A DNA stretch of 64,000 bases, from NCBI GenBank assembly GCA_964544585.1, contig CAZJBV010000001.1:119717-183716 (forward strand). The letters run 5' to 3'. The DNA comes from an uncultured Gammaproteobacteria bacterium (GTDB taxonomy: Bacteria > Patescibacteriota > Microgenomatia > 2-02-FULL-39-11). Shown here in pieces: positions 3,405 to 62,578 of this stretch. Each line of letters opens with the position of its first letter. Within the stretch, counting starts at the first letter, position 1. Both the position numbers and the translations under genes were made by a program. The notes beneath the pieces were generated by a model. That model did not search any database and was not told the origin of the DNA. It saw only the letters and a list, made by a program, of their open reading frames with translations.

Positions 3405-4637
3405 TTAAATTTTAAATATCTTTTTTACTTTAAAGAGGCCTGCAACTAGTTTATCGACGTCTTCCTTTACATTATATATATAGAAAGAGGCACGGGATGT
3501 GGCGCCTAAGCCCAAGCGGATATGGAGAGGCATGGCGCAGTGGTGGCCTGATCTAATGCAAATGTTATCTTGGTTTAATATTTCTGCTATGTCGTGGGGA
3601 TGCAGACCTTTTATGGAAAATGCTACTACCCCACCTTTTATTTCAGGATCTTTTGGACCATAAATAGTCAATCCGGGAATTTCAGATAGTCTTTTTAGGG
3701 CGTATGATACGAGTTCTTTTTCGTGGGCACGAACGGCGTCTAACCCCAATGACGAGAGGTAATCGACTGCCGCACCTAGACCTATGGCTCCGGCGATATG
3801 GGGGGTACCGGCTTCGAATTTATGAGGAGGTTTTTTATAGATAGTATGATCAAGATGAACTTCTCTTATCATCTCTCCGCCCATCTGAAAGGGAACCATG
3901 GCATCAAGCAGATCGAATTTTCCCCAAAGAACTCCTGTGCCTGTCGGACCGAGCATTTTGTGGCCGGAGAAGACGAGAAAATCACAGCCAATTTCTTTGA
4001 CATTTACCGGCATGTGAGGGACGGATTGAGCAGCGTCGATAATGACTTTGATATCTTTGTTTCTTTTTTTGGCAATTTTTATGATTTCTTTAATAGGATT
4101 TATGGTTCCGAGAACATTGGATACGTGAGTGAGAGTAAGAATCTTAGTTTTGGGAGTGATTAGTTTATCTAAATTTTGCAAATTTAATTTATATTCATCA
4201 TTTATGTCGATGTACTTTAGGACTGATCCTGTTTCTGAGGACAACTCCTGCCAGGGAACAATATTGGCGTGATGTTCCATGACTGTGGAAATAATTTCAT
4301 CACCCTCTTCGATATTTAGTCTCCCCCAAGAATAGACAATAAGATTGATGGCTTCGGTGGCATTTCTGACGAATATGACTTCGTTTGGATTTTGGGCGCC
4401 AATAAATGTGGCGACTTTTTGCCGAGCCTGTTCATATTTTTCCGTTGCTTCTTCTGATAGAGTATAAAGACCGCGAAAGATATTGACTGAATACTGGGTG
4501 TAGTATTCGTTTATAGAATCGATAACTTTTTGAGGTTTTAATGAAGTAGCTGTTGAATCGAGATAGATGATAGGCTTGTTGTTTATTAGCCTTTTAAAGA
4601 TGGGAAAATCCACTTTGATTTGGGAATTAAATAACAT
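3405..4637 (-). CDS. sufS: cysteine desulfurase SufS (class V aminotransferase)
   Basis: A PLP-fold protein with the FSGHKMLGPTG lysine motif and the RSGHHCA active-site cysteine. The start is trimmed to the Met whose ATG abuts the upstream Rieske stop codon. Confidence 0.85.
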   Translation of the reverse strand: MLFNSQIKVDFPIFKRLINNKPIIYLDSTATSLKPQKVIDSINEYYTQYSVNIFRGLYTLSEEATEKYEQARQKVATFIGAQNPNEVIFVRNATEAINLIVYSWGRLNIEEGDEIISTVMEHHANIVPWQELSSETGSVLKYIDINDEYKLNLQNLDKLITPKTKILTLTHVSNVLGTINPIKEIIKIAKKRNKDIKVIIDAAQSVPHMPVNVKEIGCDFLVFSGHKMLGPTGTGVLWGKFDLLDAMVPFQMGGEMIREVHLDHTIYKKPPHKFEAGTPHIAGAIGLGAAVDYLSSLGLDAVRAHEKELVSYALKRLSEIPGLTIYGPKDPEIKGGVVAFSIKGLHPHDIAEILNQDNICIRSGHHCAMPLHIRLGLGATSRASFYIYNVKEDVDKLVAGLFKVKKIFKI

Positions 4638-4638
4638 T

Positions 4639-4947
4639 CTAAATCTCCACCAGTATATCATCCCCTTCAAGTTTGACGGGATAAATATTGATGGGAGATG
4701 GAGCTGGGGGTGAAAGCACCTTGCCGGTTGAAATATCAAACTGGGCTCCGTGACAGTAACATGTCAGAGTATATCCATCAAGGAAGCCGCCGGCCAAGGC
4801 GCAATGTTCGTGGGTACAAATACCATCAAAGGCAAAATAGTCGCCGTCGGTATTGGCAACGACAATAGTTTTGCCGTTTACATTATATTCGCGCATTTTG
4901 CCGGAGGGAAGGTCGGATTTTATAGCTACTTTGGTATACTCGGGCAT
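4639..4947 (-). CDS. Rieske [2Fe-2S] domain protein (suf-associated)
   Basis: Carries the two Rieske boxes, CTHEHC and CYCHGAQF. Confidence 0.75.
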   Translation of the reverse strand: MPEYTKVAIKSDLPSGKMREYNVNGKTIVVANTDGDYFAFDGICTHEHCALAGGFLDGYTLTCYCHGAQFDISTGKVLSPPAPSPINIYPVKLEGDDILVEI

Positions 4948-4950
4948 AGA

Positions 4951-5577
4951 TTAATTTTTCAATAATTGATCTATTTTATACTCTATTTTTTTTTCTAGAT
5001 CAATTTTAATATTTACATCTGTCACTTTGTTGACGACTTCTTGAAGGAAGCCTTTTATAATCAGCTTTTCGGCAAGTTTTCTTTCAAGGCCTCGTGTGGC
5101 TAAGTAAAATATTTCTTCCTCATTTATTTTTCCGATTGTGGCGCCGTGAGTGCAACGGACGTCATTGGCGAGGATTTCCAATTTGGGCCTCGAGTCGGCC
5201 CAAGCACTTTTCCCTATTAGTAAATTTTGATTTTTTTGATAGGCGTTGCTTTTTTGGGCGTCTTTTTCGATTTTAATGAGTCCTTCGTATGCCAGTCTTG
5301 CTTCATCAAAGAGGACCGACTTAATAAGGAGATCGCTGACGCTTTCTTTTTTTATATGATCCTGGAATGTATACAGTTTAATTTGTTGTTTTCCGGAACC
5401 GATAATTGTTCCTAAAATCTGGACATTGGAATTTGAGCCATCTATGTAGATTTTAACAGCGCCTTCTTGATTGTTATTATCAGTTAAAATAATAAAAATA
5501 ATTTTATCCTCGCCGGATTTGACGTAAAGTTCTTCTTCTTTTTGCAGTCGGTCAATAATAGAAATAGAATTTTTCAT
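4951..5577 (-). CDS. sufD: SufD-like FeS assembly protein (short form)
   Basis: Its position between sufB and sufS fits sufD. It has a beta-helix-like C-terminal region with the SAWADSRPKLEI...DVRCTHGATIG motif that resembles the SufB/SufD family. The start is trimmed to MKNSISII. Confidence 0.55.
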   Translation of the reverse strand: MKNSISIIDRLQKEEELYVKSGEDKIIFIILTDNNNQEGAVKIYIDGSNSNVQILGTIIGSGKQQIKLYTFQDHIKKESVSDLLIKSVLFDEARLAYEGLIKIEKDAQKSNAYQKNQNLLIGKSAWADSRPKLEILANDVRCTHGATIGKINEEEIFYLATRGLERKLAEKLIIKGFLQEVVNKVTDVNIKIDLEKKIEYKIDQLLKN

Positions 5578-5705
5578 CAACCTACGCTGCCTTCCCCCGT
5601 ACAATGCTTTCCGTTCGCGAGGGCTACGTCCTCGCCTCACGGTGGCGCATATACGGGGCTTCGAGCCGCAAAGCGGCTCTCGCATTTCTAACCTACGCTC
5701 CCTTC
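5578..5705. repeat. GC-rich hairpin insert flanked by 17-bp direct repeats (aacctacgctgccttcc / aacctacgctcccttcc)
   Basis: The second direct repeat encodes the last codons and stop of sufB. The first copy sits immediately before the sufD ATG. The interior carries the hairpins gagccgctttgcggctc and gcgaggacgtagccctcgc. Confidence 0.55.
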
Positions 5706-8102
5706 CATTTCCAGTTGAATAAGTCTATTTAGTTCGACTGCGTATTCGAGGGGGAGTTGTTTGACGATGGGTTCTATAAATCCATTGACGACCATGGCTT
5801 CGGCGTCTGGTTTGTTGATACCGCGACTCATGAGGTAAAATAATTGGTCATCGCCAATCTTTGAGACTGTTGCTTCGTGTTCGATGCGACAATCATTGTG
5901 TTTTATATCCATTGTCGGATATGTATCTGATCTAGACTCATCATCTATCAACAAGGCGTCGCAGACGACTTTGGATTTGGCGCCAATTGCACTTTGAAAA
6001 ACCTGAAGAAGTCCTCTATATGATGTCCTTCCTCCACCGTGACTGACCGATTTGGAAGTAATCTTCGAAGAAGTATATGGAGCAAAGTGAATGGCTTTTC
6101 CGCCTGCATCCTGGTGCTGGCCGGGTCCGGCATAGGCAACTGATAGCACCTCTCCTCGAGCTCCTTTGCCCATTAAATAGACGCTGGGGTACTTCATAGT
6201 AAGCTTGGAATTGTGAACTAAAATACCATTTGCAATAAAATTCCCTTTATCAACTTCTATATCAAATGTCTCTTTTGATCCTTGGGGTACAATGCTATTT
6301 ACTCGGACAAACTGAATTGTTGAATCTTTTTTATCATCTCCAAAATATAAGAAATGATGTTTATAAACTTTTTCTTCTATACCAAGTGGTTTTCTCTCTC
6401 TCCTTGTCCAAAGCGAAATTTTCCTTGGAGAAAATTTATCGGTTATGTAACTTAGGTCTTTGACTTGTTGTAATAATTTCTTATTTACCGATGTTATAGA
6501 TATATTTCTATGATTATCACGTCTATATCCATCTGCATCGATATAACCCTCGATGAATGATGTTATTTGGGATTTTGGTAATGTGTAGATCCATTCAGGA
6601 ACTTCTTTGTCTTGCGCTTTTCCTTTGAATCCAAGCTTTACCAAAAAATCAACAAATTTTGTGGAAGCATAACGAACAATATTTCTTTTTATTTCGGGTT
6701 TAAGTCCAAAAAGCTTATTTATTGTTTCAATAACCTTTTTAAAGCTTTTATCACTTTGTGGAACAGCTATATATACTCTTGTTTTGTCCATACATCCATC
6801 ACCAATGTAAAAACCTAGAAGCCATAGCAATTCTTCGCTGCTTATTTCCGGATAGAAAAACTCCTTTTTACCACGTTTGGGGTTAAAATGTATGGGATAA
6901 TTTTTTCCTACCCATGGAAGTTTTCCTGATACTGCAATTAAATCTCCAACTTTTATTTTATCTAAAGGCATCCAATTGAAGTAAGAAATTTTTCCTTTCT
7001 TTTTTAAGACAAGAAAAGGATGATTTGCAGTTGCTTCTACTTCACGAAAATCTTCTGTTGTGATTTTGAAAACTGGAAGGGGGGGATTTTTAACTTTAGC
7101 TAACAATTTGGCTCTTGTTAAGGTAAATTCTGGAGTCATCGAGTATAAATAGTCGCCCGGTCGAATGTCTTTAATGGAAAGAACATGATCATTTGCTATT
7201 ATTTTCGCATCCTCTGTTAAACATCCTAAATTACCGTCGATCCACTCGCCAATTCCCTCTTCTTCGACTCGCATTCTTTTGGTGACGAGATTGTAAACAT
7301 TGGTCGACCAGTTTTGAATGGTGGTATATCTGACTCGTGCTCCTTTTTTGACAAAAATTTCAACAACAGCGGCGTGAAGTGAATCTGTGGTATAAACGGG
7401 AGCGGTGCATCCTTCGACATAATGAACGAAACTACCCTCGTCGGCGATTATTAATGTTCTTTCAAACTGACCCATATTGGCGGCGTTGATACGAAAATAA
7501 GCTTGTAGAGGAAGTTCCACATTGACACCTTTGGGAACGTATATAAATGATCCGCCACTCCAAGTAGCCGAATTTAAAGCGGCGAATTTATTGTCATGTG
7601 GTGGAATGATTGTGCTAAAATATTCTTTGACCAAATCCGGATACTCACGAAGTCCTGAGTCCATATCCAAGAATACTACTCCTTTTTTGCCGAGAGTTTT
7701 TTGGATGCTTTTATATACGACTTCTGACTCATATTGAGCTGAAACACCGCCAAGATATTTTTTTTCTGCTTCTGGAATGCCAATTCGGTCGTAGGTTCGG
7801 CGAATTTCAATAGGTAAATCCTTCCAACTTCTAGCTTTTTTTTCTGTGGGTTTTATATAGTAATAAATGTTGTCGAAATTGATTTTGGAAAGATCTCCGC
7901 CCCAAGCAGGGAGTGTTTTTTTATAAAAGATGTCTAGAGCATCATGGCGAAATTTTCTCATCCAATCCGGTTCATTTTTGTGGTATGAGATTTCATCTAT
8001 CACTAAATGAGAAAGTCCTTTTTTAGACTTGAATGAATAGCGTTCGGCCTCGTGAAAGCCTAGAGGGTAGGAATCGTTAATTGCTATTTGTGATGTGGGC
8101 AT
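5688..8102 (-). CDS. sufB: FeS cluster assembly protein SufB interrupted by an intein
   Basis: An 804-aa ORF. The exteins carry conserved SufB blocks (NWSTNVYNLVTKR, WIDGNLG | SKLTMKYPSVYLMG, GEVLSVAYAGPGQHQDAGGK). A 338-aa insertion begins with Cys and ends with HN, followed by Ser. Confidence 0.85.
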   Translation of the reverse strand: MPTSQIAINDSYPLGFHEAERYSFKSKKGLSHLVIDEISYHKNEPDWMRKFRHDALDIFYKKTLPAWGGDLSKINFDNIYYYIKPTEKKARSWKDLPIEIRRTYDRIGIPEAEKKYLGGVSAQYESEVVYKSIQKTLGKKGVVFLDMDSGLREYPDLVKEYFSTIIPPHDNKFAALNSATWSGGSFIYVPKGVNVELPLQAYFRINAANMGQFERTLIIADEGSFVHYVEGCTAPVYTTDSLHAAVVEIFVKKGARVRYTTIQNWSTNVYNLVTKRMRVEEEGIGEWIDGNLGCLTEDAKIIANDHVLSIKDIRPGDYLYSMTPEFTLTRAKLLAKVKNPPLPVFKITTEDFREVEATANHPFLVLKKKGKISYFNWMPLDKIKVGDLIAVSGKLPWVGKNYPIHFNPKRGKKEFFYPEISSEELLWLLGFYIGDGCMDKTRVYIAVPQSDKSFKKVIETINKLFGLKPEIKRNIVRYASTKFVDFLVKLGFKGKAQDKEVPEWIYTLPKSQITSFIEGYIDADGYRRDNHRNISITSVNKKLLQQVKDLSYITDKFSPRKISLWTRRERKPLGIEEKVYKHHFLYFGDDKKDSTIQFVRVNSIVPQGSKETFDIEVDKGNFIANGILVHNSKLTMKYPSVYLMGKGARGEVLSVAYAGPGQHQDAGGKAIHFAPYTSSKITSKSVSHGGGRTSYRGLLQVFQSAIGAKSKVVCDALLIDDESRSDTYPTMDIKHNDCRIEHEATVSKIGDDQLFYLMSRGINKPDAEAMVVNGFIEPIVKQLPLEYAVELNRLIQLEMEGSVG
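6210..7223 (-). mobile_element. SufB intein with LAGLIDADG homing endonuclease domain
   Basis: Starts at Cys (CLTEDAKII) and ends in VHN followed by the +1 Ser. Two LAGLIDADG-like blocks are present (LLWLLGFYIGDGC and FIEGYIDADGY). It is inserted at the conserved GNLG/S site of SufB. Confidence 0.8.
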
Positions 8103-54240: not shown

Positions 54241-54726
54241 TTATTCTTTTTTGATCATAGTGTCAATTACATCGTAGATAGTATCCCAGTCAAAACCTCT
54301 TCTTGCCAGGGCTCCTTCCAGTTTTTGTTTTAGTTCGACTTTTGGGAGATTTTTATATAAATTCAGTTTTTTTTGGGCGACTGTGAGAGCTTTTTCAAAT
54401 TCGCTGCGATACAATTTATTTACAGAGAAAAACTCTTCAATATCGGCTGTCGCGATGCCTTTTTGGCGAAGTTCTTGTTTTAAAAGCATTTTTCCTTTGG
54501 GTCGGAAAGTGTCTCTTTGATCGACCCACCATGAAATAAAAGCTTTATCCGAAACTAATTTTCGCTCTTCCAAGTCCGTAATGACTTTGTCGATTGTTTT
54601 TTTGGCGATACCGCGTTTAAAACTATATTGAAAAAGTTTGCCATAGAGTTCTTTTTGGGAACGGGGGCGAATTGATAAAAGTTTTAGGGCTTTATCGATA
54701 AGAAGTTGGTATTGATCTTGATCCAT
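54241..54726 (-). CDS. recX: regulatory protein RecX
   Basis: A 161-aa helical-repeat protein immediately downstream of recA. Confidence 0.75.
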   Translation of the reverse strand: MDQDQYQLLIDKALKLLSIRPRSQKELYGKLFQYSFKRGIAKKTIDKVITDLEERKLVSDKAFISWWVDQRDTFRPKGKMLLKQELRQKGIATADIEEFFSVNKLYRSEFEKALTVAQKKLNLYKNLPKVELKQKLEGALARRGFDWDTIYDVIDTMIKKE

Positions 54727-55754
54727 TAATCAGATTTTTCTCTACCTGTTTTTTCTTTGGCGTGGCCGGTTTTATGTGCTTTATATATTTGTTCCAAAAT
54801 TTCGCGGGCTAATTTATGATTTTCTTTTAAGTACATTTTGGCTGCTTCTCTACCCTGACCGAGCATGGTCGTCCCATACTTTAGAAAAGCGCCGGATTTG
54901 GTGATAATGCTATATTCTAGGCCAACATCGATAAGACCCCCTTCTCTGGATATACCACTACTATCGATATCGAATTCTGCAATTTTGAAGGGAGGCGAAA
55001 CTTTGTTTTTGACTATTCTTACCCTATGACGTGTTCCTACCACCTGATCCCCATCTTTAAGAGTCTCTATTTTCCTGATATCGATCCTAATTGAGGCATA
55101 AAACTTGAGGGCCAAGCCTCCGGGAGTCGTTTCGGGATTGCCAAACATAATGCCTATTTTTTGGCGCAGCTGATTGGTAAAAAGACAAATTGTTTTGGAC
55201 TTGGAGATAACGCCTGTGAGTTTGCGAAGTGCTTGGGACATGAGGCGGGCCTGCATACCCATGACAGCATCACCCATCTCGCCTTCGATTTCGGCTCGCG
55301 GGACTAGAGCTGCGACTGAATCTATAACGACGACATCAACTCCCCCAGACCTTATTAATGTCTCTGCAATTTCTAGGGCTTGCTCGCCTGTGTCGGGCTG
55401 GGAAATAAGAAGATCTTCCAGTTTGACACCCAGTCTTTCTGCCCAGACGGGATCGAGGGCGTGCTCGGCATCAATAAAGGCGGCTACACCTCCGTGCTTT
55501 TGGGCTTCGGCAATAACAGTCAGAGCAAGGGTTGTTTTTCCGGATGCCTCGGGGCCGAATATTTCGGCGATTCGCCCTTTAGGTAAGCCTCCTATTCCTA
55601 GGGCAAGATCGACGGCAATAGAACCTGTGGGGATAACATCAATTGTTAGTTTTTGGGTTGACTCGCCTAATTTCATGATAGATCCTTTGCCGTACTGCTT
55701 TTCTATCTGCTCCATCGCCAGTTTAATTGCTTGGAATTTTTGGTCGTTTGTCAT
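54726..55754 (-). CDS. recA: recombinase RecA
   Basis: Has Walker [10 protein letters not shown], the L1/L2 loops, and highly conserved sequence throughout. Confidence 0.95.
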
Positions 55755-55808: not shown

Positions 55809-57410
55809 TTACATAGATAATGCTAGAATACAATAGTTCAAAACGGGGTGTAGGTCATCGGTAGACCGCGCGCATGGGGTGCGTGAAGTAGTGGGTTCAA
55901 TTCCCGCCACCCCGACAGATAGAGAGTCCGCGAAGCGGACGGAAGGTTGGGTCTGCGCGCCCCCACTCGCGCAGACTTCTGCAAAGCCCTGATTATATTC
56001 TGGGACAAGCCGCCGATCAGTTAAAAAGAAGTTCGAGCCGACAGTTTTTGCCATGATCGACAGATCATGGGATGTATTTTTTGCGCGCGCGATTTTTGCG
56101 CACGATAGTGCGCTACCAATGAAGTTTTTGAAAGGTTCGAGCCAACTCGAACCATTTTGTTTTATTTGTTCTAATTCTTCACTTATTTTTAATTTTTCTT
56201 CGAAAAATTCGTTCTTTTTTGTCTTGTAAATTTCGGGGTCAATAATTCCTTCTAAGTAACCATCTAAGAGTTTATTAAGTTTTACATCAATATCTTTTAA
56301 TTGCTGCTCTAATTTTAGGGTATTATCGTGAATGGATACAGTCTCTAATTTCTCATCCTCATCTAGCCATTTATACCAATTACTAGCCCATTTTTCTGGT
56401 AATGCAACATCATCAATGGCTTTTCTAAATTGTTGTTCAAGCTCTGGTTCTGAAATGTAAGGTTGATTGCAGGGTTTAATTTTTTTAGTACATCTATAGT
56501 AAACATATTCAACAGTTCTATTTGTTCCTTTGTAGAATTTTTTATGAGATTCAGCGGTAATAGTTGCTCCACACTCTCCACATCTCATTAAACCCATAAA
56601 GGGGAAATTATATCTTCTTTTTTTATGTCTATCCCTAAACTTTAATTCTTGCTGGACTTTTTGGAATAACTCTTTACTTATAATAGTTTTATGAGTACCC
56701 TCGTGATATTCTCCGTTGTAATACATTATGCCTATGTAAAATCTGTCTGATAAAATCTGGCGGATTTGATTTATATGTAGGGGTTTATCAATTTTTCTTT
56801 TAAGGTCAAACTTATATAGAAAGGTCGCAATATCAGTAAAAGTTTTGTCGCCTTCGCTAAATAATTCAAAAGCCTTCTTAATTGCTTTTAGTTTTTCTCC
56901 ATCTACATCTATCCCACGGGTTTTAGGATTATTAATATACCCATAAGGAGCTTTGCCAGGATAAACACCATTGCGGATTTTTTGTCTTAACCCACGTCTT
57001 ACATTTTCAGATAAATTATCCACATAATATTTACTCTGACCAAAGGCAATATTTAACATAAATTTTCCCTGGGGAGTATTTTCAAACCAAGAGGTCGGAA
57101 ATTTTAAGTCCTTCAATTTCCCGGTATCTAAAAGGTAAATTATTTTCCCACCATCTATTGAGTTACGAGCTAATCTATCAGGATGCCACGCAATAATCCC
57201 TTGTATATGACCTTTTTCTATTTTCTTCAAAACTTCCGCAAATTTTTCTCTGCCCGGAATCTTGGCAGTTTTTTCTTCTTCAACAAATTCGGTAATTTCC
57301 AAATGCTCTCTTTTAGCGTATTCTTTTAGCTCGGCAATTTGAGCAGAGATAGATAAAATCTGTTTATCTTTTTCTTCTCTGGATTTTCTACAGTAAGCAA
57401 TGTATTTCAT
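55809..57410 (-). CDS. large serine recombinase (resolvase domain + recombinase domain + zinc ribbon)
   Basis: An N-terminal YCRKSREE...SISAQ catalytic-serine motif, a recombinase domain, and CGECG...YYRC. The last ~90 codons read through IR1-L and antisense tRNA-Pro (GIEPTTS), so the true C-terminus is uncertain. Confidence 0.8.
   Translation of the reverse strand: MKYIAYCRKSREEKDKQILSISAQIAELKEYAKREHLEITEFVEEEKTAKIPGREKFAEVLKKIEKGHIQGIIAWHPDRLARNSIDGGKIIYLLDTGKLKDLKFPTSWFENTPQGKFMLNIAFGQSKYYVDNLSENVRRGLRQKIRNGVYPGKAPYGYINNPKTRGIDVDGEKLKAIKKAFELFSEGDKTFTDIATFLYKFDLKRKIDKPLHINQIRQILSDRFYIGIMYYNGEYHEGTHKTIISKELFQKVQQELKFRDRHKKRRYNFPFMGLMRCGECGATITAESHKKFYKGTNRTVEYVYYRCTKKIKPCNQPYISEPELEQQFRKAIDDVALPEKWASNWYKWLDEDEKLETVSIHDNTLKLEQQLKDIDVKLNKLLDGYLEGIIDPEIYKTKKNEFFEEKLKISEELEQIKQNGSSWLEPFKNFIGSALSCAKIARAKNTSHDLSIMAKTVGSNFFLTDRRLVPEYNQGFAEVCASGGAQTQPSVRFADSLSVGVAGIEPTTSRTPCARSTDDLHPVLNYCILALSM
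55844..55915 (+). tRNA. tRNA-Pro (anticodon GGG)
   Basis: Cloverleaf: acceptor cggggtg/caccccg, D stem ggtc/gacc, anticodon stem cgcgc/gcgtg with loop aTGGGgt, T arm gtggg-ttcaatt-cccgc, discriminator A. Confidence 0.75.
55913..56015. repeat. IR1-L: 103-bp perfect inverted copy of 57519-57621
   Basis: Exact reverse complement of IR1-R. It starts 3 nt inside the 3' end of tRNA-Pro. It contains the internal hairpin gtctgcgcg-agtggggg-cgcgcagac. Confidence 0.9.
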
Positions 57411-57518
57411 TTTTTATTTTCCTCTTATAAGAAGAGTTCTTTTGCGAGCGAAGCGAGCAGTCCCGATGATATATCGGGACAAAATTTTTGCGTTCCTCGT
57501 TTTTTGTTCTTTTTAACC

Positions 57519-57700
57519 GGCGGCTTGTCCCAGAATATAATCAGGGCTTTGCAGAAGTCTGCGCGAGTGGGGGCGCGCAGACCCAACCTTCCGTCCGCTT
57601 CGCGGACTCTCTATCTGTCGACCTTTTTAAAAAAATCCGAACTCGCTTTAAGTCGAATCGGTAGGCGCGCTACGCGCGCCATCTTATCCGCTCGGCCTTC
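57519..57700. repeat. IR1-R (57519-57621) fused to IR2-L (57615-57700): the junction segment of two inverted-repeat-bounded modules
   Basis: The left 103 nt are the exact reverse complement of 55913-56015. The right 86 nt are the exact reverse complement of 62493-62578. Confidence 0.9.
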
Positions 57701-57850
57701 GGCCGAAGCTCTTAAACTGTCGGCCGAACCAGTCCGTAGGACTGCAAAAAACGCAAAAATTTTAAAGAACTTTTGTTATTTCTGTTTGCTTATTCCAATT
57801 TGGCATATTACATTTTGGAATATATCATATACTGTATCTTATTTTCAACT

Positions 57851-58078
57851 ATGAAAAAATCTATTTTTTCGGAGGATCATAAATATTTAGTAAGTCAACT
57901 TAAAAAAGCCAGAGAAGAAGCATCTCTTGAGCAAGAAGAGGTGGCTAAGTTACTTGGAAAAACTCAATCTTATATTTCAAAAATAGAGTCAGGTCAAAGA
58001 AGAATAGACATCGTTCAATTAAAACAATTTGCGAAGTTATACAAGAAAGAGGTTAATTTCTTTATTAAAAAGGCATGA
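57851..58078 (+). CDS. XRE-family HTH protein, probable R-M controller (C) protein
   Basis: A 75-aa Cro/C1-type HTH (QEEVAKLLGKTQSYISKIESGQR). Its stop overlaps the downstream ORF start (ATGA), as in C-R operons. Confidence 0.6.
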   Translation: MKKSIFSEDHKYLVSQLKKAREEASLEQEEVAKLLGKTQSYISKIESGQRRIDIVQLKQFAKLYKKEVNFFIKKA

Positions 58079-58920
58079 GAAGAAAAGAAATAATTAAATT
58101 TATCACCGGAATGATCGAAGAAGGTGGATTAACCTTTACTGATTATGCGACTAAACTCGAGGAGATAGTTAATAAACTATCGTTGGAAGATATAAAAATA
58201 AGCCTACTTGAATGTGGCGTAATCCCAGAGTCTTTTAATCACGATTCAACGGAAGAAAAATTATATTCAAAATATTCAGATATGTTACTTGCAAGAGCGT
58301 TCACATTCATCGGAATAGATTCCAAAGTTATTAAAGAAAGAGCAGATGCGGCAGATGTTGAGGGTAAAACTAAAGACTACACTCTTGTTGCAGATGGAAA
58401 GGTCTTTCGGTTAAGCCGAACTGCTAAGAATCAGAAGGATTTTAAGGTCGAAGCGTTAGATAAATGGAGGAACGGTAAAGATTTCGCTTGTTTGGTATCT
58501 CCTCTTTATCAATACCCTAAAAGTAAAAGTCAAATTTATAGACAAGCTATTGGTAGAAATGTTACCTTATTTTCCTATATCCACCTATATTTTATTCTCT
58601 CTCAAAATAAGTCGAACCAGTGCAACTATAAACCCTTATGGTTGGTTAGTAAGAAATTAAAAGGTGCAAAAGGAGCAGTAACTTATTGGAAGGGAATTGA
58701 TAAGACGCTTTGCAAAATCCTAAATAAAAGTCTAAAAGAGCTAGAAGCGATTAAAAAACTTGAGCTTGATTTACTAAAAGAATCTGCAAAAGAAGAAGTG
58801 GCATATATTGAAGGTAAAATTGAAACAATAAAATCATTATCACATACCGAGGCTATTGAGAGATTAATAAAAGCAGAAAAACTTGATCAGAAAATTAATC
58901 AAATAACAAGAATGGCTTGA
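58075..58920 (+). CDS. putative Type II restriction endonuclease (by context)
   Basis: A 281-aa protein with no family signature recognised. It is translationally coupled to the C-protein and convergent with the methyltransferase. There is a possible PD-(D/E)xK arrangement (GID ... DVEGK). Confidence 0.35.
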   Translation: MRRKEIIKFITGMIEEGGLTFTDYATKLEEIVNKLSLEDIKISLLECGVIPESFNHDSTEEKLYSKYSDMLLARAFTFIGIDSKVIKERADAADVEGKTKDYTLVADGKVFRLSRTAKNQKDFKVEALDKWRNGKDFACLVSPLYQYPKSKSQIYRQAIGRNVTLFSYIHLYFILSQNKSNQCNYKPLWLVSKKLKGAKGAVTYWKGIDKTLCKILNKSLKELEAIKKLELDLLKESAKEEVAYIEGKIETIKSLSHTEAIERLIKAEKLDQKINQITRMA

Positions 58921-60495
58921 TTAAAATAGAGGTTCCTGATTTACTTTACCATTTTTTGGATTAGAAACATAAGCTCCATTTAATCTTTTTTTGGCAATCT
59001 CGCAAAATTCACTGGAAATTTCAAAACCAATATATTTTCTATTAAGATTCTTTGCCGCAATAGCGGTCGAACCGGAACCAAGAAATGGATCCATAATAAC
59101 CTGACCATCTTTTGTTACAAGCCTAATTAAATATTCTAATAACTCCACTGGCTTCTGTGCTTCGTGTAGTCCTCCTTCGCCTTTGCCAAAACCAAACTGT
59201 AGAATATTTGTCGGAGATTTTCCGTTGATTAAAGACGCATCTATATTCATGGCTCCTACTTTATTTTTTAGTACATTATCTGTAATTGTAATTTCATAGG
59301 GTTTAAATAACCAGGCAATCGGTTCATATTTTGGCGCGAGATTACCAACCTTCCAACCTTCCCATTCCTTTGCTTCTTCTACCAATCCTCTTTTCTTAAT
59401 AATTTCACTTATATATTGAGCTCTGTGATGAGCATTTGGTTTTTCCCAAGCTAGGATATCTCTTAACAGAAACCCACTATCTTCAAGAGCTATAATTGCC
59501 CTGTGCAGAGTTCTTCTTGCGCCGAAAATAAATATACTTGCGCCTTCTTTTAAAGAAGGGTAGAGCTTTTTTGCCCACGAATAACACCATTCTTGGTATT
59601 CTTTTGGGATATTTCTGTCTGCGCTTGACCACCCATTAATAGGTTTTCCTCTTCTCCGAAATGCCTTTTTGCCTATCTGTGCAGGTGATTGTCCTAAAAG
59701 GGCGGAGTTTGTGTTAGCGTGTAAAACATCCCATTCATCCAGTGATATTCCATAAGGAATATCCGACAGAACTAGATCTATTGAATCCGGCTTCACCTTA
59801 TCTAGAAGTTCTATAGCATCACCACAAAGAATTTGATTTTCTTCAATATATTCGGATGGACTAACTTTATTTTCAGTTTCTGGAGGTAAATTAGTTTTGG
59901 TATTGAGATTTTTAATAATGTCAATAACAATTCCTTGCACAATTAAATTTTCTGGATCAACAAAAAATGGATCTAAACTTGAATTTGCTGGCTGAAGTCT
60001 TATTTTTCCTCTTTCCCTATATAATTTTTTCAAAGTTACTTCTGAATTGTTTATTAATGCAACTACTTTTTGTCCATTATCGGCTGTAGGTTGGCTTTTT
60101 ACTATTACTATATCTCCATGATCAATATTTTCATCAATCATACTTTGTCCAGCAACACGTAGGCCGTAGAAATCACCATTTTTCGGTATTTTTGATTTTG
60201 GTACTGCTATAAACTCTTTATCTTCAATAGCTAAAATTGGTTGTCCCGCAGCAATAGTGCCAAGCAGAGGAATCTGTACCATTTGCATCTCATCATACAC
60301 ATCAATTGCCCGAGGCTGATTTTCTTCTTTTCTTAACAAACCCAAATCTTCTAATGCCTTGACGTGATGATGGGCTGTTGAAACAGAGGATAGCCTTAAA
60401 TGCTTCTTTATTTCTTCCAAAGAAGGAGCATAACCATGTTTAGTTTTGTAGGATTTTATATATTCCAGAACTTGCTTTTGTCTTTTTGTAATCAT
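58921..60495 (-). CDS. LexA repressor (HTH + S24 peptidase) fused to a beta-class N4/N6 DNA amino-methyltransferase
   Basis: The N-terminal ~205 aa have the LexA architecture: a wHTH domain, the AAG cleavage site (TIAAGQP), catalytic Ser (AGQSM) and Lys (TLKKL). The C-terminal ~320 aa have motif IV SDIPYG preceding motif I DPFLGSGST (PF01555-like). It is a single open frame with no internal start. Confidence 0.75.
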   Translation of the reverse strand: MITKRQKQVLEYIKSYKTKHGYAPSLEEIKKHLRLSSVSTAHHHVKALEDLGLLRKEENQPRAIDVYDEMQMVQIPLLGTIAAGQPILAIEDKEFIAVPKSKIPKNGDFYGLRVAGQSMIDENIDHGDIVIVKSQPTADNGQKVVALINNSEVTLKKLYRERGKIRLQPANSSLDPFFVDPENLIVQGIVIDIIKNLNTKTNLPPETENKVSPSEYIEENQILCGDAIELLDKVKPDSIDLVLSDIPYGISLDEWDVLHANTNSALLGQSPAQIGKKAFRRRGKPINGWSSADRNIPKEYQEWCYSWAKKLYPSLKEGASIFIFGARRTLHRAIIALEDSGFLLRDILAWEKPNAHHRAQYISEIIKKRGLVEEAKEWEGWKVGNLAPKYEPIAWLFKPYEITITDNVLKNKVGAMNIDASLINGKSPTNILQFGFGKGEGGLHEAQKPVELLEYLIRLVTKDGQVIMDPFLGSGSTAIAAKNLNRKYIGFEISSEFCEIAKKRLNGAYVSNPKNGKVNQEPLF

Positions 60496-60602
60496 AGATA
60501 TTGACAGCTCAAGAATAATTCTATACAATTAGGTTAATCGAAAATGAATCGAAAGTCAAGTGGTTAAAATTTAACCTGAAGATTAAAGGGGGTGATGAAA
60601 AT

Positions 60603-60815
60603 ATGACTCATCGTAAAGGATCAAAACCAAATCATAAAGGAGAGCAGTGGACAGAATCACAAGTTGAGCGTCTTGAGAATTTGGCTAAAAGGAATACACC
60701 TACCCCTTTAATTGCAGATGCATTAGGTAGAACGGAGGGGGCAATAAGATCTAAAACATCGGAAGAGAATATTTCTCTTAAGCCAATCAATAAATCTCCC
60801 TATAGTAGAAGGTAA
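60603..60815 (+). CDS. small GcrA/Myb-like HTH protein
   Basis: W-T-E..V..L..L......P..IA..LGRT..A...K resembles the GcrA N-terminal/SANT-like DNA-binding fold. A good SD (aagggggtga) lies upstream. Confidence 0.35.
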   Translation: MTHRKGSKPNHKGEQWTESQVERLENLAKRNTPTPLIADALGRTEGAIRSKTSEENISLKPINKSPYSRR

Positions 60816-60836
60816 AATAGAATTGATAAAGCAATT

Positions 60837-61814
60837 ATGGACTTATTTTCGAAAGTCAAACCATCACTTTTTATAGCCCGTCCTTGGGATACATCCTTTG
60901 CTGAACTTTATGAACCCATTAAGAAAAACCTCGTTGGTAAATGGGAAATTAATGACGGCCCCCTTATAGTTAAAGAAGATGAGGCTCAAGCAGAAAGAGA
61001 AATGTTCATAGGTAGAAACAAGCAACTGTACGAACAGATTGTTTTAGGGATAAAGAAGTCAGATGTCTTTATTGCCGATGTAACAAATGCTAATGCAAAC
61101 GTTATGATGGAATTAGGAATTGCAATACAACTAAACAAAAATGTCATTATAGTGACAGGGCAAGATAGGAATAGACTCCCGTTTGATATACAGGGTTTTA
61201 AAGCAGAAAAATATGATAATATAAATGACCTCGGTGAAAAAATTGGAAATGGACTTTCTTTATATTTATCAATAAAAGAACAGAATTTTGATAAGCCCTT
61301 TCCAGAAAACCACATACCTATATCTGATGGGAAATTAACGGGACTTAGGGCAATAATGCCGATTCAACTTTCCAAACCTATTAAAAATTTAAAGCTGAGA
61401 ATCGAATACAAATTTGTAAATAAATCTGATGATCAGGATTGGCTAGGAATACATTTGCGAGCATCTCCCTCTATTCAACCTTCTGAATTAGTGTATGTTA
61501 GATCAAATGGTAGCTTAGAGATTGTAACGCTCCCTACCAGACCTGCACCCTCGGTAGGAGTAGATAAAGAAAATATAGATAACAGGTTAGAAGATGGATA
61601 CACTAGATTAGAACTAATTCTTGATGGCAATAAATTACTGGCCGCTACCTCAACTAAAGAGTTATATGACGATTTAATTCAAATAGAATCGTTCGGCAGT
61701 ATATTTCTTCAGGCAAATGGACATAGCCAAGATCCACAAAAACGAGAGAGTCTTGAGATTGATTTTAGAAATTTTGAAATTATTAATATAGATACGACAA
61801 GTCCTAACTCGTAA
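60837..61814 (+). CDS. nucleoside 2-deoxyribosyltransferase-like (NDT/TIR-like Rossmann) N-domain protein with unknown beta-rich C-domain
   Basis: The N-terminus (LFIARPW ... SDVFIADVTNANANVMMELGIAIQLNKNVIIV) resembles the PF05014/PF15891 fold. The C-terminal 180 aa are unassigned. Confidence 0.45.
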   Translation: MDLFSKVKPSLFIARPWDTSFAELYEPIKKNLVGKWEINDGPLIVKEDEAQAEREMFIGRNKQLYEQIVLGIKKSDVFIADVTNANANVMMELGIAIQLNKNVIIVTGQDRNRLPFDIQGFKAEKYDNINDLGEKIGNGLSLYLSIKEQNFDKPFPENHIPISDGKLTGLRAIMPIQLSKPIKNLKLRIEYKFVNKSDDQDWLGIHLRASPSIQPSELVYVRSNGSLEIVTLPTRPAPSVGVDKENIDNRLEDGYTRLELILDGNKLLAATSTKELYDDLIQIESFGSIFLQANGHSQDPQKRESLEIDFRNFEIINIDTTSPNS

Positions 61815-62492
61815 ATTATATTTTTATTTTTTAACCTTTGAAGCGGCTCCGCCGCCCCCGCCCTGTTGGGGATAATTTCCCTTAAAGGAGGGCTGCCGTC
61901 AGAAAAACTTTCAAGTAGGGAGCTAAAAGAAAATCTGGGATAGGCAGCCCGACAAACGCGAGAGCCGAGAGGAATATTTTCGGATTATAGAAAAACTCGG
62001 CTCGAGCCATCGGAATCAGTAGCGTAGCGAGCTCTCGAGAGCGAGCAAGCGGTGGGAAGCAGAAGGGGTACAAATAATAAAGGCGGGGGCGAAAAGCGGA
62101 ATACCCCCGCAACGGCAGGAGATACTAAAACAGAAAAAGGGGAGGCGAGGAGCGGCCGAAGGCTATTTTGTTCTTCGCTCCTCGCCGTGGTAGAGACTGT
62201 AAAGCGAAAATAGAAAACCCCTAATATGGGAAAGGCTCCCCCTAGGGAGCCCTCTCGCCCAAAAGCGGGGGTGCCGCTTCCTTTTAATTGGGTGGGAGGG
62301 ATGATGGGAATTTGTACCAGCGTATAGATATATGTTTTTAAAGGGAGCGTTAAGTTAGTTTTCCGCGGATGGGTGGGTTGGGCCAAGGAAAACATTTGTG
62401 TTTTTGTTACTTTACCTGTCCGCGTCAGCGGACTATAATAAATAAAAATCGCGCGCATTTCTGTCTTTGCAAAAAATACTAGAGCGAGGCCA
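61815..62492 (+). other. GC- and purine-rich non-coding segment with dense local hairpins (candidate structured RNA)
   Basis: No credible ORF. GC is far above background. There are multiple perfect hairpins (gaggcgaggagcg/cgctcctcgcc, ggctccccctagggagcc, gcgggggc...gcccccgc). Confidence 0.35.
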
Positions 62493-62578
62493 AAGGCCGA
62501 GCGGATAAGATGGCGCGCGTAGCGCGCCTACCGATTCGACTTAAAGCGAGTTCGGATTTTTTTAAAAAGGTCGACAGA
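62493..62578. repeat. IR2-R: 86-bp perfect inverted copy of 57615-57700
   Basis: Exact reverse complement. Contains the hairpin ggcgcgc-tac-gcgcgcc. Confidence 0.9.

Follow-up and report, generated by a model that had tools for sequence, protein, structure and literature searches.

What kind of system is formed where a gene for a small helix-turn-helix (HTH) protein runs through an ATGA overlap into a gene for a 281-aa protein, with a DNA methyltransferase gene converging on the pair, and how is such a system controlled? The question is raised by a locus in a 64,000-nt stretch of DNA (hereafter, the window) from an uncultured bacterium assigned by GTDB to the Patescibacteriota (assembly GCA_964544585.1, contig CAZJBV010000001.1, positions 119,717 to 183,716). 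Our reading, to which we give a probability of roughly 0.7, is that the locus is a mobile HindIII-type restriction–modification (R-M) system with two separate regulatory circuits, one run by a controller (C) protein at the endonuclease (R) operon and the other by a LexA repressor domain fused to the methylase (M). Direct support comes from the identities of the three proteins, from both sets of operators and their conservation, from the exclusivity of the LexA-type box, from its match to the boxes of stand-alone lexA genes of the candidate phyla radiation (CPR) and from its change together with the recognition helix.

The C gene (57851..58078, forward strand; start ATG at 57851, stop TGA at 58076-58078) encodes a 75-aa XRE-type HTH protein and is coupled by an ATGA overlap (58075-58078) to the endonuclease gene (58075..58920, forward strand; 281 aa). 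The third gene encodes a 524-aa LexA–methyltransferase fusion (58921..60495, reverse strand) and is convergent with the endonuclease gene, such that the stop codons touch (TGA at 58918-58920 and TTA at 58921-58923); no terminator-like site was found between the two. A first-pass annotation, made from the sequence alone, had described the HTH gene, the ATGA overlap into the 281-aa gene and the convergent methyltransferase, and all of its coordinates were confirmed. A mechanical list of open reading frames (ORFs) gave longer TTG starts for the C gene (57773) and the methylase gene (60528), but we preferred the ATG starts at 57851 and 60495 because homologues begin at ATGs and because the operators described below lie inside the TTG extensions. 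Chance is an unlikely explanation of this three-gene layout, with profile hidden Markov model (HMM) E-values of 1e-14 to 1e-76 and recurrence in independent genomes.

The 281-aa protein is a full-length member of the HindIII family. It matched the Pfam model RE_HindIII (PF09518; E = 2.2e-76, 257.3 bits versus a cut-off of 25.3) over residues 20-279 of 281, corresponding to profile positions 17-283 of 285, and the solved HindIII structures 2e52/3a4k over residues 20-277 (E = 1.9e-46); PADLOC placed it in its REase_II model (1.2e-70), and NCBIfam held no model matching it. An alignment of the HindIII sequence from the PDB match with 23 family members that share 44-85% identity with the window protein showed P51-E52, D107 and the whole F111-K124 block (FRLSRTAKNQKDFK) to be invariant, HindIII included. 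The invariant residues E52, D107, D122 and K124 fall at the positions of the catalytic residues of HindIII (E51, D108, D123 and K125 in 2E52/3A4K). The first-pass annotation had called the protein family-less, with a loose PD-(D/E)xK spacing, and both descriptions give way to a confident family assignment with invariant PD...(D/E)XK residues. Its proposal that this gene encodes the endonuclease is borne out by the agreement of Pfam, PDB and PADLOC; it had held that a non-nuclease family or a missing catalytic triad would speak against that role, and what we found is a nuclease family and an invariant set of acidic and lysine residues. An identical protein is present in GenBank under the name 'HindIII family type II restriction endonuclease [Candidatus Gottesmanbacteria bacterium]' (MBI2611280.1), from a metagenome-assembled genome (MAG). 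Given 37% identity to HindIII and an identical recognition and catalysis block, the enzyme may cut A^AGCTT.

The 75-aa protein scored above the cut-off for Pfam HTH_3 (E = 2e-14), matched the PADLOC Control_protein model (1.2e-7) and had C.BclI (9.7e-6) and C.AhdI (7e-4) among its PDB matches. Upstream of its gene lie two adjacent 15-bp palindromes on the forward strand, a distal operator overlapping the -35 element (C-box 1, ATTCCAattTGGCAT, 57792..57806) and a proximal operator (C-box 2, ATTACAtttTGGAAT, 57807..57821) directly followed by the -10 element TATCAT (57823-57828); together (57792-57821) they overlap a promoter-like site at 57800-57828. For comparison, we fetched related loci (numbered L001 and so on) and scanned 1.46 Mb of them for operator boxes. 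The two-box layout recurs upstream of the orthologous C genes of L001, L006, L009 and L015; the first three have C-box 1 in the same place before their type-A C genes, with the sequence ATTCCAnnnTGGAAT, and its left half is degenerate in L015. A variant C protein in L008 comes with a variant half-site, TAGGAT, and a different classical (type-B) C protein in L003 and L005 (…GMIERAEKN…) comes with another pair of palindromes, GCTAACTATAGT…AACTAAAGTTAGC. Such joint variation of operator and C protein is typical of controller 'incompatibility groups' (PMC3874152). In the related loci that were checked, an HTH gene stands directly upstream of the endonuclease gene, with spacing ranging from a 14-nt overlap to a 6-nt gap.

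As judged from these sequence matches and operators, the 75-aa protein is a genuine R-M controller, and the locus is very probably a C-controlled R-M system of the HindIII family. The PvuII and BamHI systems have a gene order that differs from a convergent arrangement of the C-R and M units. The likeness to them drawn in the first-pass annotation holds in so far as this is a controlled Type II system with C-boxes in its promoter, and fails for the layout, which is that of Esp1396I (PMC2691842). The pair of C and endonuclease genes on which that annotation had focused is ordinary and already carries the HindIII family name in GenBank. It overlooked the most unusual feature of the locus, namely the fusion of the methylase to an entire LexA protein with an SOS-type operator of its own. 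This conserved fusion and its operator are what set the system as a whole apart within a known kind.

Residues 1 to ~200 of the fusion form a complete LexA, with a winged HTH, a scissile A83-G84 bond and the residues S118 and K156; they are followed by a linker of ~25 aa and, at residues ~225-524, by a beta-class N6_N4 DNA methyltransferase with a DIPY motif. The three Pfam domains are LexA_DNA_bind, Peptidase_S24 and N6_N4_Mtase. The LexA moiety exceeded the threshold of the lexA equivalog model TIGR00498 (182.1 bits, cut-off 110.95) over residues 12-208 of the TTG-start ORF, equal to residues 1-197 from the ATG at 60495 and to profile positions 3-202 of 203, and it matched LexA structures in the PDB over residues 2-196 (2e-31). 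The methylase part matched N6_N4_Mtase (PF01555; E = 2.6e-45, 155.5 bits) and the PADLOC model MTase_II (2e-118). We found ~30 clusters of fusion proteins with the same three domains, 45-93% identical and all from CPR/Patescibacteria-type genomes (Uhrbacteria, Berkelbacteria and others). DIPY and FLGSGST, a motif of the S-adenosylmethionine-binding type, are conserved in the fusion methylases, and A83, G84, S118 and K156 are invariant in all 23 fusions that were aligned. The LexA moiety is 58-70% identical to stand-alone CPR LexA proteins with the same recognition helices. NCBI labels the fusion only as 'transcriptional repressor LexA', a name that conceals the methylases of this fusion class in databases, and the literature that we searched describes no natural LexA–methyltransferase fusion. 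The 64-kb window contains no other LexA-like gene; recA lies at 54726-55754, ~3 kb from the fusion gene.

We also observed that the methylase ends in QEPLF (58924-58938), a Q-x-x-L-F sequence resembling the motif that binds the beta sliding clamp. Of 33 fused genes, 25 have this ending, among them the unrelated DPPY-type core, and it occurs in exact form in 17 of 125 unfused HindIII-type methylases of other phyla, many more of which have xLF near the end. The terminus suggests maintenance methylation tethered to the replisome.

The SOS-type operator (60537..60554, reverse strand) is a direct repeat, TTTCGAT-tcat-TTTCGAT, in the promoter of the fusion gene (lexA-M). Its two 7-bp half-sites have the same orientation and are 11 bp apart, a geometry established for the LexA box of Caulobacter (GTTCN7GTTC; PMC9578287). 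The promoter reads TTGACT-TTCGATTCATTTTCGAT, with the -35 element TTGACT at 60559-60554, and the box fills the 17-nt spacer. TTTCGAT-N4-TTTCGAT occurs once in the window. We found no further SOS box there, including upstream of recA (allowing up to 3 mismatches gave 5 matches versus 8 expected), and neither of the two other box types described below (TTTCTAT and GTTCGGT); no regulon beyond the system's own divergent promoters was visible in the 64 kb. Throughout the 1.46 Mb of related loci, the CGAT-type box was found essentially only at lexA-M or lexA promoters, and the looser CTAT-type pattern gave three matches elsewhere that are likely to be due to chance. The box is present at the fusion promoters examined, with two exceptions: in L086, the closest metagenomic relative (93% identical protein), a 164-nt insertion (~320-483 of L086) separates box and promoter from the lexA-M ATG, and in L089 the first half-site reads ATTCTAT.

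The same boxes are found at stand-alone CPR lexA genes, where they read TTTCGAT-N4-TTTCGA or TTTCTAT-N4-TTTCTA. The lexA gene of L166 (recognition helix HHHVKAL) has ATCGAAAATAAATCGAAAA immediately 5' of its ATG, and that of L167 (helix HFHVSKL) has TTTTCTATTTATTTTCTATAAT upstream. Across loci, half-sites vary with the helix: HHHV[KR]AL, IHFH[IV]KKL and HYHVQAL are paired with TTTCGAT, HF[HN]VSKL with TTTCTAT or TTTCCAT, and the divergent VHQHIE[ST]L with GTTCGGT, as in the GTTCGGT-N4-GTTCGGT boxes of L097 and L099. Candidate CPR SOS boxes lie at 2475-2492 and 3961-3978 of L166, 2474-2490 of L167 and 11424-11441 of L003. The second box of L166 fronts a small two-gene unit, and that of L003 is of the GTTCGGT type, stands at a rarA/mgsA-like host gene and differs from the box of the LexA-methylase in the same locus. 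This pattern hints at several LexA 'dialects' and at an insulation of the element from the host regulon.

Two other assignments of the box were considered. We rejected it as an operator of the C protein, given that box type is independent of C type and that the box also occurs at stand-alone lexA genes without a C protein. An operator of the 70-aa protein encoded by the divergent gene is unlikely, since this gene is absent from L005/L013 and from other loci that keep the box. Taken together with the match between helix and box, from which binding is deduced, the operator argues that the methylase probably represses its own gene through its LexA domain.

The box is also positioned at a second promoter in the window. 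The best sigma-70-like site of the region, TTGACA-17-TACAAT (60501..60529, forward strand; 11 of 12 matches), is divergent from lexA-M and reads through the box, located at about +2 to +20, into genes for proteins of 70 aa and 325 aa. The 70-aa gene (60603..60815, forward strand) has no Pfam or NCBIfam match; copies of its product that are 97% identical are found in L102 and L086 and a 45% identical relative in L001. The 325-aa gene (60837..61814, forward strand), a cargo gene downstream of the box, encodes an N-terminal TIR/nucleoside-deoxyribosyltransferase-like domain (Pfam Nuc_deoxyrib_tr, 6.8e-7; CAP12-PCTIR_TIR, 2.7e-3; PADLOC TIR effector, 3.4e-8). To judge by these matches and by the position of the box, the divergent operon may be a damage-inducible defence effector carried on the same element.

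The module of C, R and convergent LexA-M genes recurs in about 20 CPR loci. Of the 16 non-redundant CPR loci with a fused HindIII-type methylase and enough flanking sequence, 15 have the C and R genes in tandem and convergent with lexA-M, with a C gene identified in at least 13 of the 15. Among Bacteroidota, Chloroflexota, Planctomycetota and other phyla there are methylase homologues (60-70% identical) that carry no fusion. In about three quarters of these non-CPR loci we detected a HindIII-family endonuclease gene next to the methylase gene, in the order R then M and in the same direction, without a homologue of the window's C protein and without LexA. In L008 (7521-7782) and L116 (2585-2800), the endonuclease gene is deleted or in fragments and the LexA-methylase is intact; these are decayed copies that have left an orphan methylase, the usual fate of R-M systems. 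In L102, which derives from the same metagenome as L086 (L086 itself being a near-identical relative of the window), positions 3682-7387 correspond to window positions 57751-61863 and share, at ~94% nucleotide identity, the genes for the 325-aa and 70-aa proteins, the box and the LexA moiety; a related C gene is also present. L102 differs in having a DPPY-type methylase core and a 192-aa endonuclease of another family. Because it shares the frame and differs in the specificity pair, the R gene and the M core appear to have been exchanged as a cassette within a constant regulatory frame. Separately, L167 (3150-3884) has, 13 nt downstream of a stand-alone CPR lexA gene, a gene whose product carries an NmeDI_C domain, which is related to restriction enzymes; this is another possible link between LexA and restriction.

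The module is carried on large-serine-recombinase elements that adjoin transfer RNA (tRNA) genes. Recombinase homologues adjoin it in L001, L005, L006, L087 and L097, and its neighbourhoods are unrelated between genomes (murE, leuS, infB/rbfA). In the window, the R-M cassette is cargo of an element of ~6.7 kb inserted beside tRNA-Pro (55844-55916). The large serine recombinase gene (55809..57410, reverse strand) has Resolvase, Recombinase and Zn_ribbon_recom domains. The element spans 55844-62578 and contains two nested pairs of long inverted repeats. The outer arm A (55913..56015, 103 nt), which the tRNA gene abuts, is 100% complementary to arm A' (57518-57620), and the outer right end, arm B' (62488..62578, 91 nt), is 99% complementary to arm B (57614-57704). 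Arms A' and B overlap by 7 nt and make up an internal composite site (57518..57704). A 7-nt core, CGACAGA, stands in direct orientation at the two outer ends (55913-55919 and 62572-62578) and inverted in the middle (TCTGTCG, 57614-57620). This overlapping two-repeat layout recurs in L087, L006/L007 and L097, and a single-repeat version is present in L005/L013 and L093. We rejected the idea that the inverted repeats are solely an assembly artefact, as the layout recurs in elements only 67-80% identical and from different assemblers and includes imperfect repeats (92-95%). Repeat identities are 92-100% within elements that are otherwise 67-80% identical. The recombinase segment has opposite orientations in L087 and L088, and the element of L005/L013 is found in both orientations relative to rbfA. 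We read the outer sites as putative attL and attR and the inner site as a putative inverted attP; the excised circle would then carry two inverted attP sites and may be able to flip, making it a flip-flop element.

Several further features of the element were observed. The recombinase ORF extends ~100 residues beyond the last Pfam domain, running through arm A and the antisense of tRNA-Pro, and inversion of the segment would change the end of the ORF (…SLSVDLFKKIRTRFKSNR, compare the ORF at 57488-57664); GenBank has no protein accession for this gene. Between 61840 and 62490 lies a 650-nt GC-rich (~50% versus 39% for the window), hairpin-rich stretch with no convincing ORF and with folding z-scores of -3.9 on the forward strand and -4.5 on the reverse strand. 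This stretch showed no blastn similarity in the related loci and no Rfam match, and Rfam searches of GC-rich regions returned only tRNAs.

Compared with known systems, the endonuclease is the most conventional component: it shares with R.HindIII of Haemophilus influenzae the full length of the family, with the PD...(D/E)XK residues and the FRLSRTAKNQKDFK block identical, and its neighbour, as in other HindIII-family loci, is a beta-class N6_N4 methyltransferase. The collinear R and M genes of the HindIII-type loci outside the CPR contrast with the window, where the two genes are convergent, R stands under a C protein and M forms a fusion with LexA. In having a C-R operon convergent with M, and distal and proximal C sites in the CR promoter, the window resembles Esp1396I and AhdI (PMC2691842), although its C-box (ATTCCAnnnTGGAAT) belongs to another specificity group. 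In Esp1396I, the M promoter is shut early by a repressor, which is the C protein itself (PMC2691842), whereas the M promoter of the window lacks a C-box; in its place stands an SOS-type box that fits the LexA domain of the fused methylase. The other known mode of R-M regulation is a methylase that binds DNA and represses its own gene (PMC3874152). In SsoII/Ecl18kI, EcoRII, MspI and ScrFI, short HTH segments are attached to C5 methylases; the window differs from them in carrying on an N6_N4 methylase a 200-aa LexA with a predicted self-cleaving S24 domain, in using a direct-repeat operator common to cellular lexA genes and in having a C protein as well. The fusion is like the LexA/SOS repressor in its domain order, cleavage site, catalytic dyad and apparent self-regulation, and unlike it in being fused to an enzyme and borne by a mobile element. 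Its box shares direct half-sites 11 bp apart with that of Caulobacter but uses TTTCGAT rather than GTTC.

These features suggest how the system could work. The C protein would bind the two palindromic boxes of its own promoter and, by analogy with AhdI, PvuII and Esp1396I, would first activate and then limit the C-R operon, and the ATGA-coupled endonuclease would hence appear late and at a set level. In a naive cell, the methylase gene would be strongly on, and it would then be shut by its own LexA winged-helix domain at the box, which would also block the divergent promoter of the 70-aa and TIR-like genes. RecA on single-stranded DNA would trigger self-cleavage of the fusion, for example where under-methylated host DNA has been cut or where repair synthesis has left unmodified sites. 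Such cleavage is to be expected, as no fusion departs from the Ala-Gly bond or the Ser/Lys dyad. It would free the DNA-binding domain and de-repress the methylase gene, and since the methylase and endonuclease genes abut without a terminator, the additional transcripts would extend into the endonuclease gene in antisense orientation. In sum, the system would contain its own loop for restriction alleviation.

We put damage-induced de-repression, as predicted from the invariant cleavage machinery, at just short of an even chance. Somewhat less probable still is the fullest version of the mechanism, in which the fusion is a damage-sensing antidote built from a captured host SOS repressor, its cleavage lifts repression of both the methylase and the TIR-like gene and directs antisense transcripts into the gene of the endonuclease, the R/M core is swappable and the boxes (TTTCGAT, TTTCTAT and GTTCGGT) are previously undescribed CPR 'dialects'.

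A number of points weigh against the proposed system. Binding, cleavage, methylation and restriction are all deduced from sequence. The lexA-M promoter has a poor -10 element (TAACCT), because of which its assignment is uncertain, and the promoter–operator unit faces away from lexA-M in L003, L012, L014, L093 and L098; in some loci the box may primarily serve the divergent gene. The pairing of helix and box is not one-to-one (HHHVKLL occurs with TTTCTA in L106, L116 and L120), and because the loci share ancestry, their covariation is supportive rather than proof. A host LexA of the same specificity may run the promoter with no need for the fused domain. The enzyme has left no genomic footprint, in that AAGCTT is not depleted in the 64-kb window (23 observed, ~20 expected); because the site is not avoided, and at the level of identity to HindIII given above, the cleavage specificity should be taken as a prediction. 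Finally, the S24-methylase fragment might be degraded after cleavage, which would give the opposite outcome, a loss of protection.

This last point leads to a rival explanation, in which self-cleavage destroys the methylase, its fragment being degraded as E. coli LexA fragments are, and damage or phage would turn the system into a suicide (abortive-infection) device. The cleavage machinery would be the same, and the control of a TIR-like putative effector gene by the SOS box would fit a damage-triggered defence island. We nevertheless consider it improbable: the sequence of the C-terminal fragment indicates no degron, the decayed L008 and L116 have lost the endonuclease and kept LexA-M, which fits M as the protective partner, and the scheme is wholly inferential. 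A more probable, though still unlikely, alternative does away with the damage response and takes the LexA moiety as a dimerising autorepressor only, a larger form of the N-terminal HTH of SsoII, EcoRII and MspI in which S24 serves to dimerise. Self-repression by way of an N-terminal HTH is established for a class of methylases (PMC3874152), and in the window the box stands only at the system's own promoter and not at recA. Dimerisation, however, would not demand the scissile Ala-Gly bond and Ser/Lys dyad that are invariant in 23 fusions 45-93% identical, and the moiety is a full LexA equivalog whose closeness to stand-alone LexA proteins equals that among the fusions themselves.

The fusion could instead be the housekeeping SOS repressor of the host, incidentally bearing a methylase. 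This would agree with its NCBI name, with the ~3 kb separating it from recA in a window with no second LexA-like gene and with a box that is the same as those of stand-alone CPR lexA genes. We hold it to be improbable, because the mobile element that carries the gene turns up in unrelated neighbourhoods (murE, leuS, infB/rbfA) and because the window has no other box: the gene sits within a repeat-bounded serine-recombinase element beside a tRNA gene, and the box is missing at the recA promoter and elsewhere in the window, which covers 64 kb of a contig at least 205 kb long. Furthermore, stand-alone LexA proteins are abundant in CPR, and L003 has a different box type (GTTCGGT) at its host rarA-like gene. 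An assembly or frameshift artefact behind the fusion ORF or the whole arrangement, for which one might cite the MAG source and the long perfect inverted repeats nearby, is extremely improbable, given that uninterrupted fusion ORFs occur in ~30 clusters from many samples and assemblers and that several independent data sets contain an identical protein.

The mobile, doubly regulated HindIII-type system thus proposed would unite both known modes of Type II R-M regulation, with a C protein acting on R and a DNA-binding methylase acting on M. Its box, as read from sequence comparisons, would be the first LexA operator motif for CPR bacteria, in which hardly any experimental genetics has been done. 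If cleavage occurs, DNA damage would be tied directly, at the molecular level, to the balance of methylase and endonuclease in a Type II system, and a defined cassette of three genes would allow self-restriction and restriction alleviation to be tested. If the fusion is indeed an antidote, a mobile element would carry a Type II R-M system with a restriction-alleviation circuit of its own, derived from a captured host SOS repressor.

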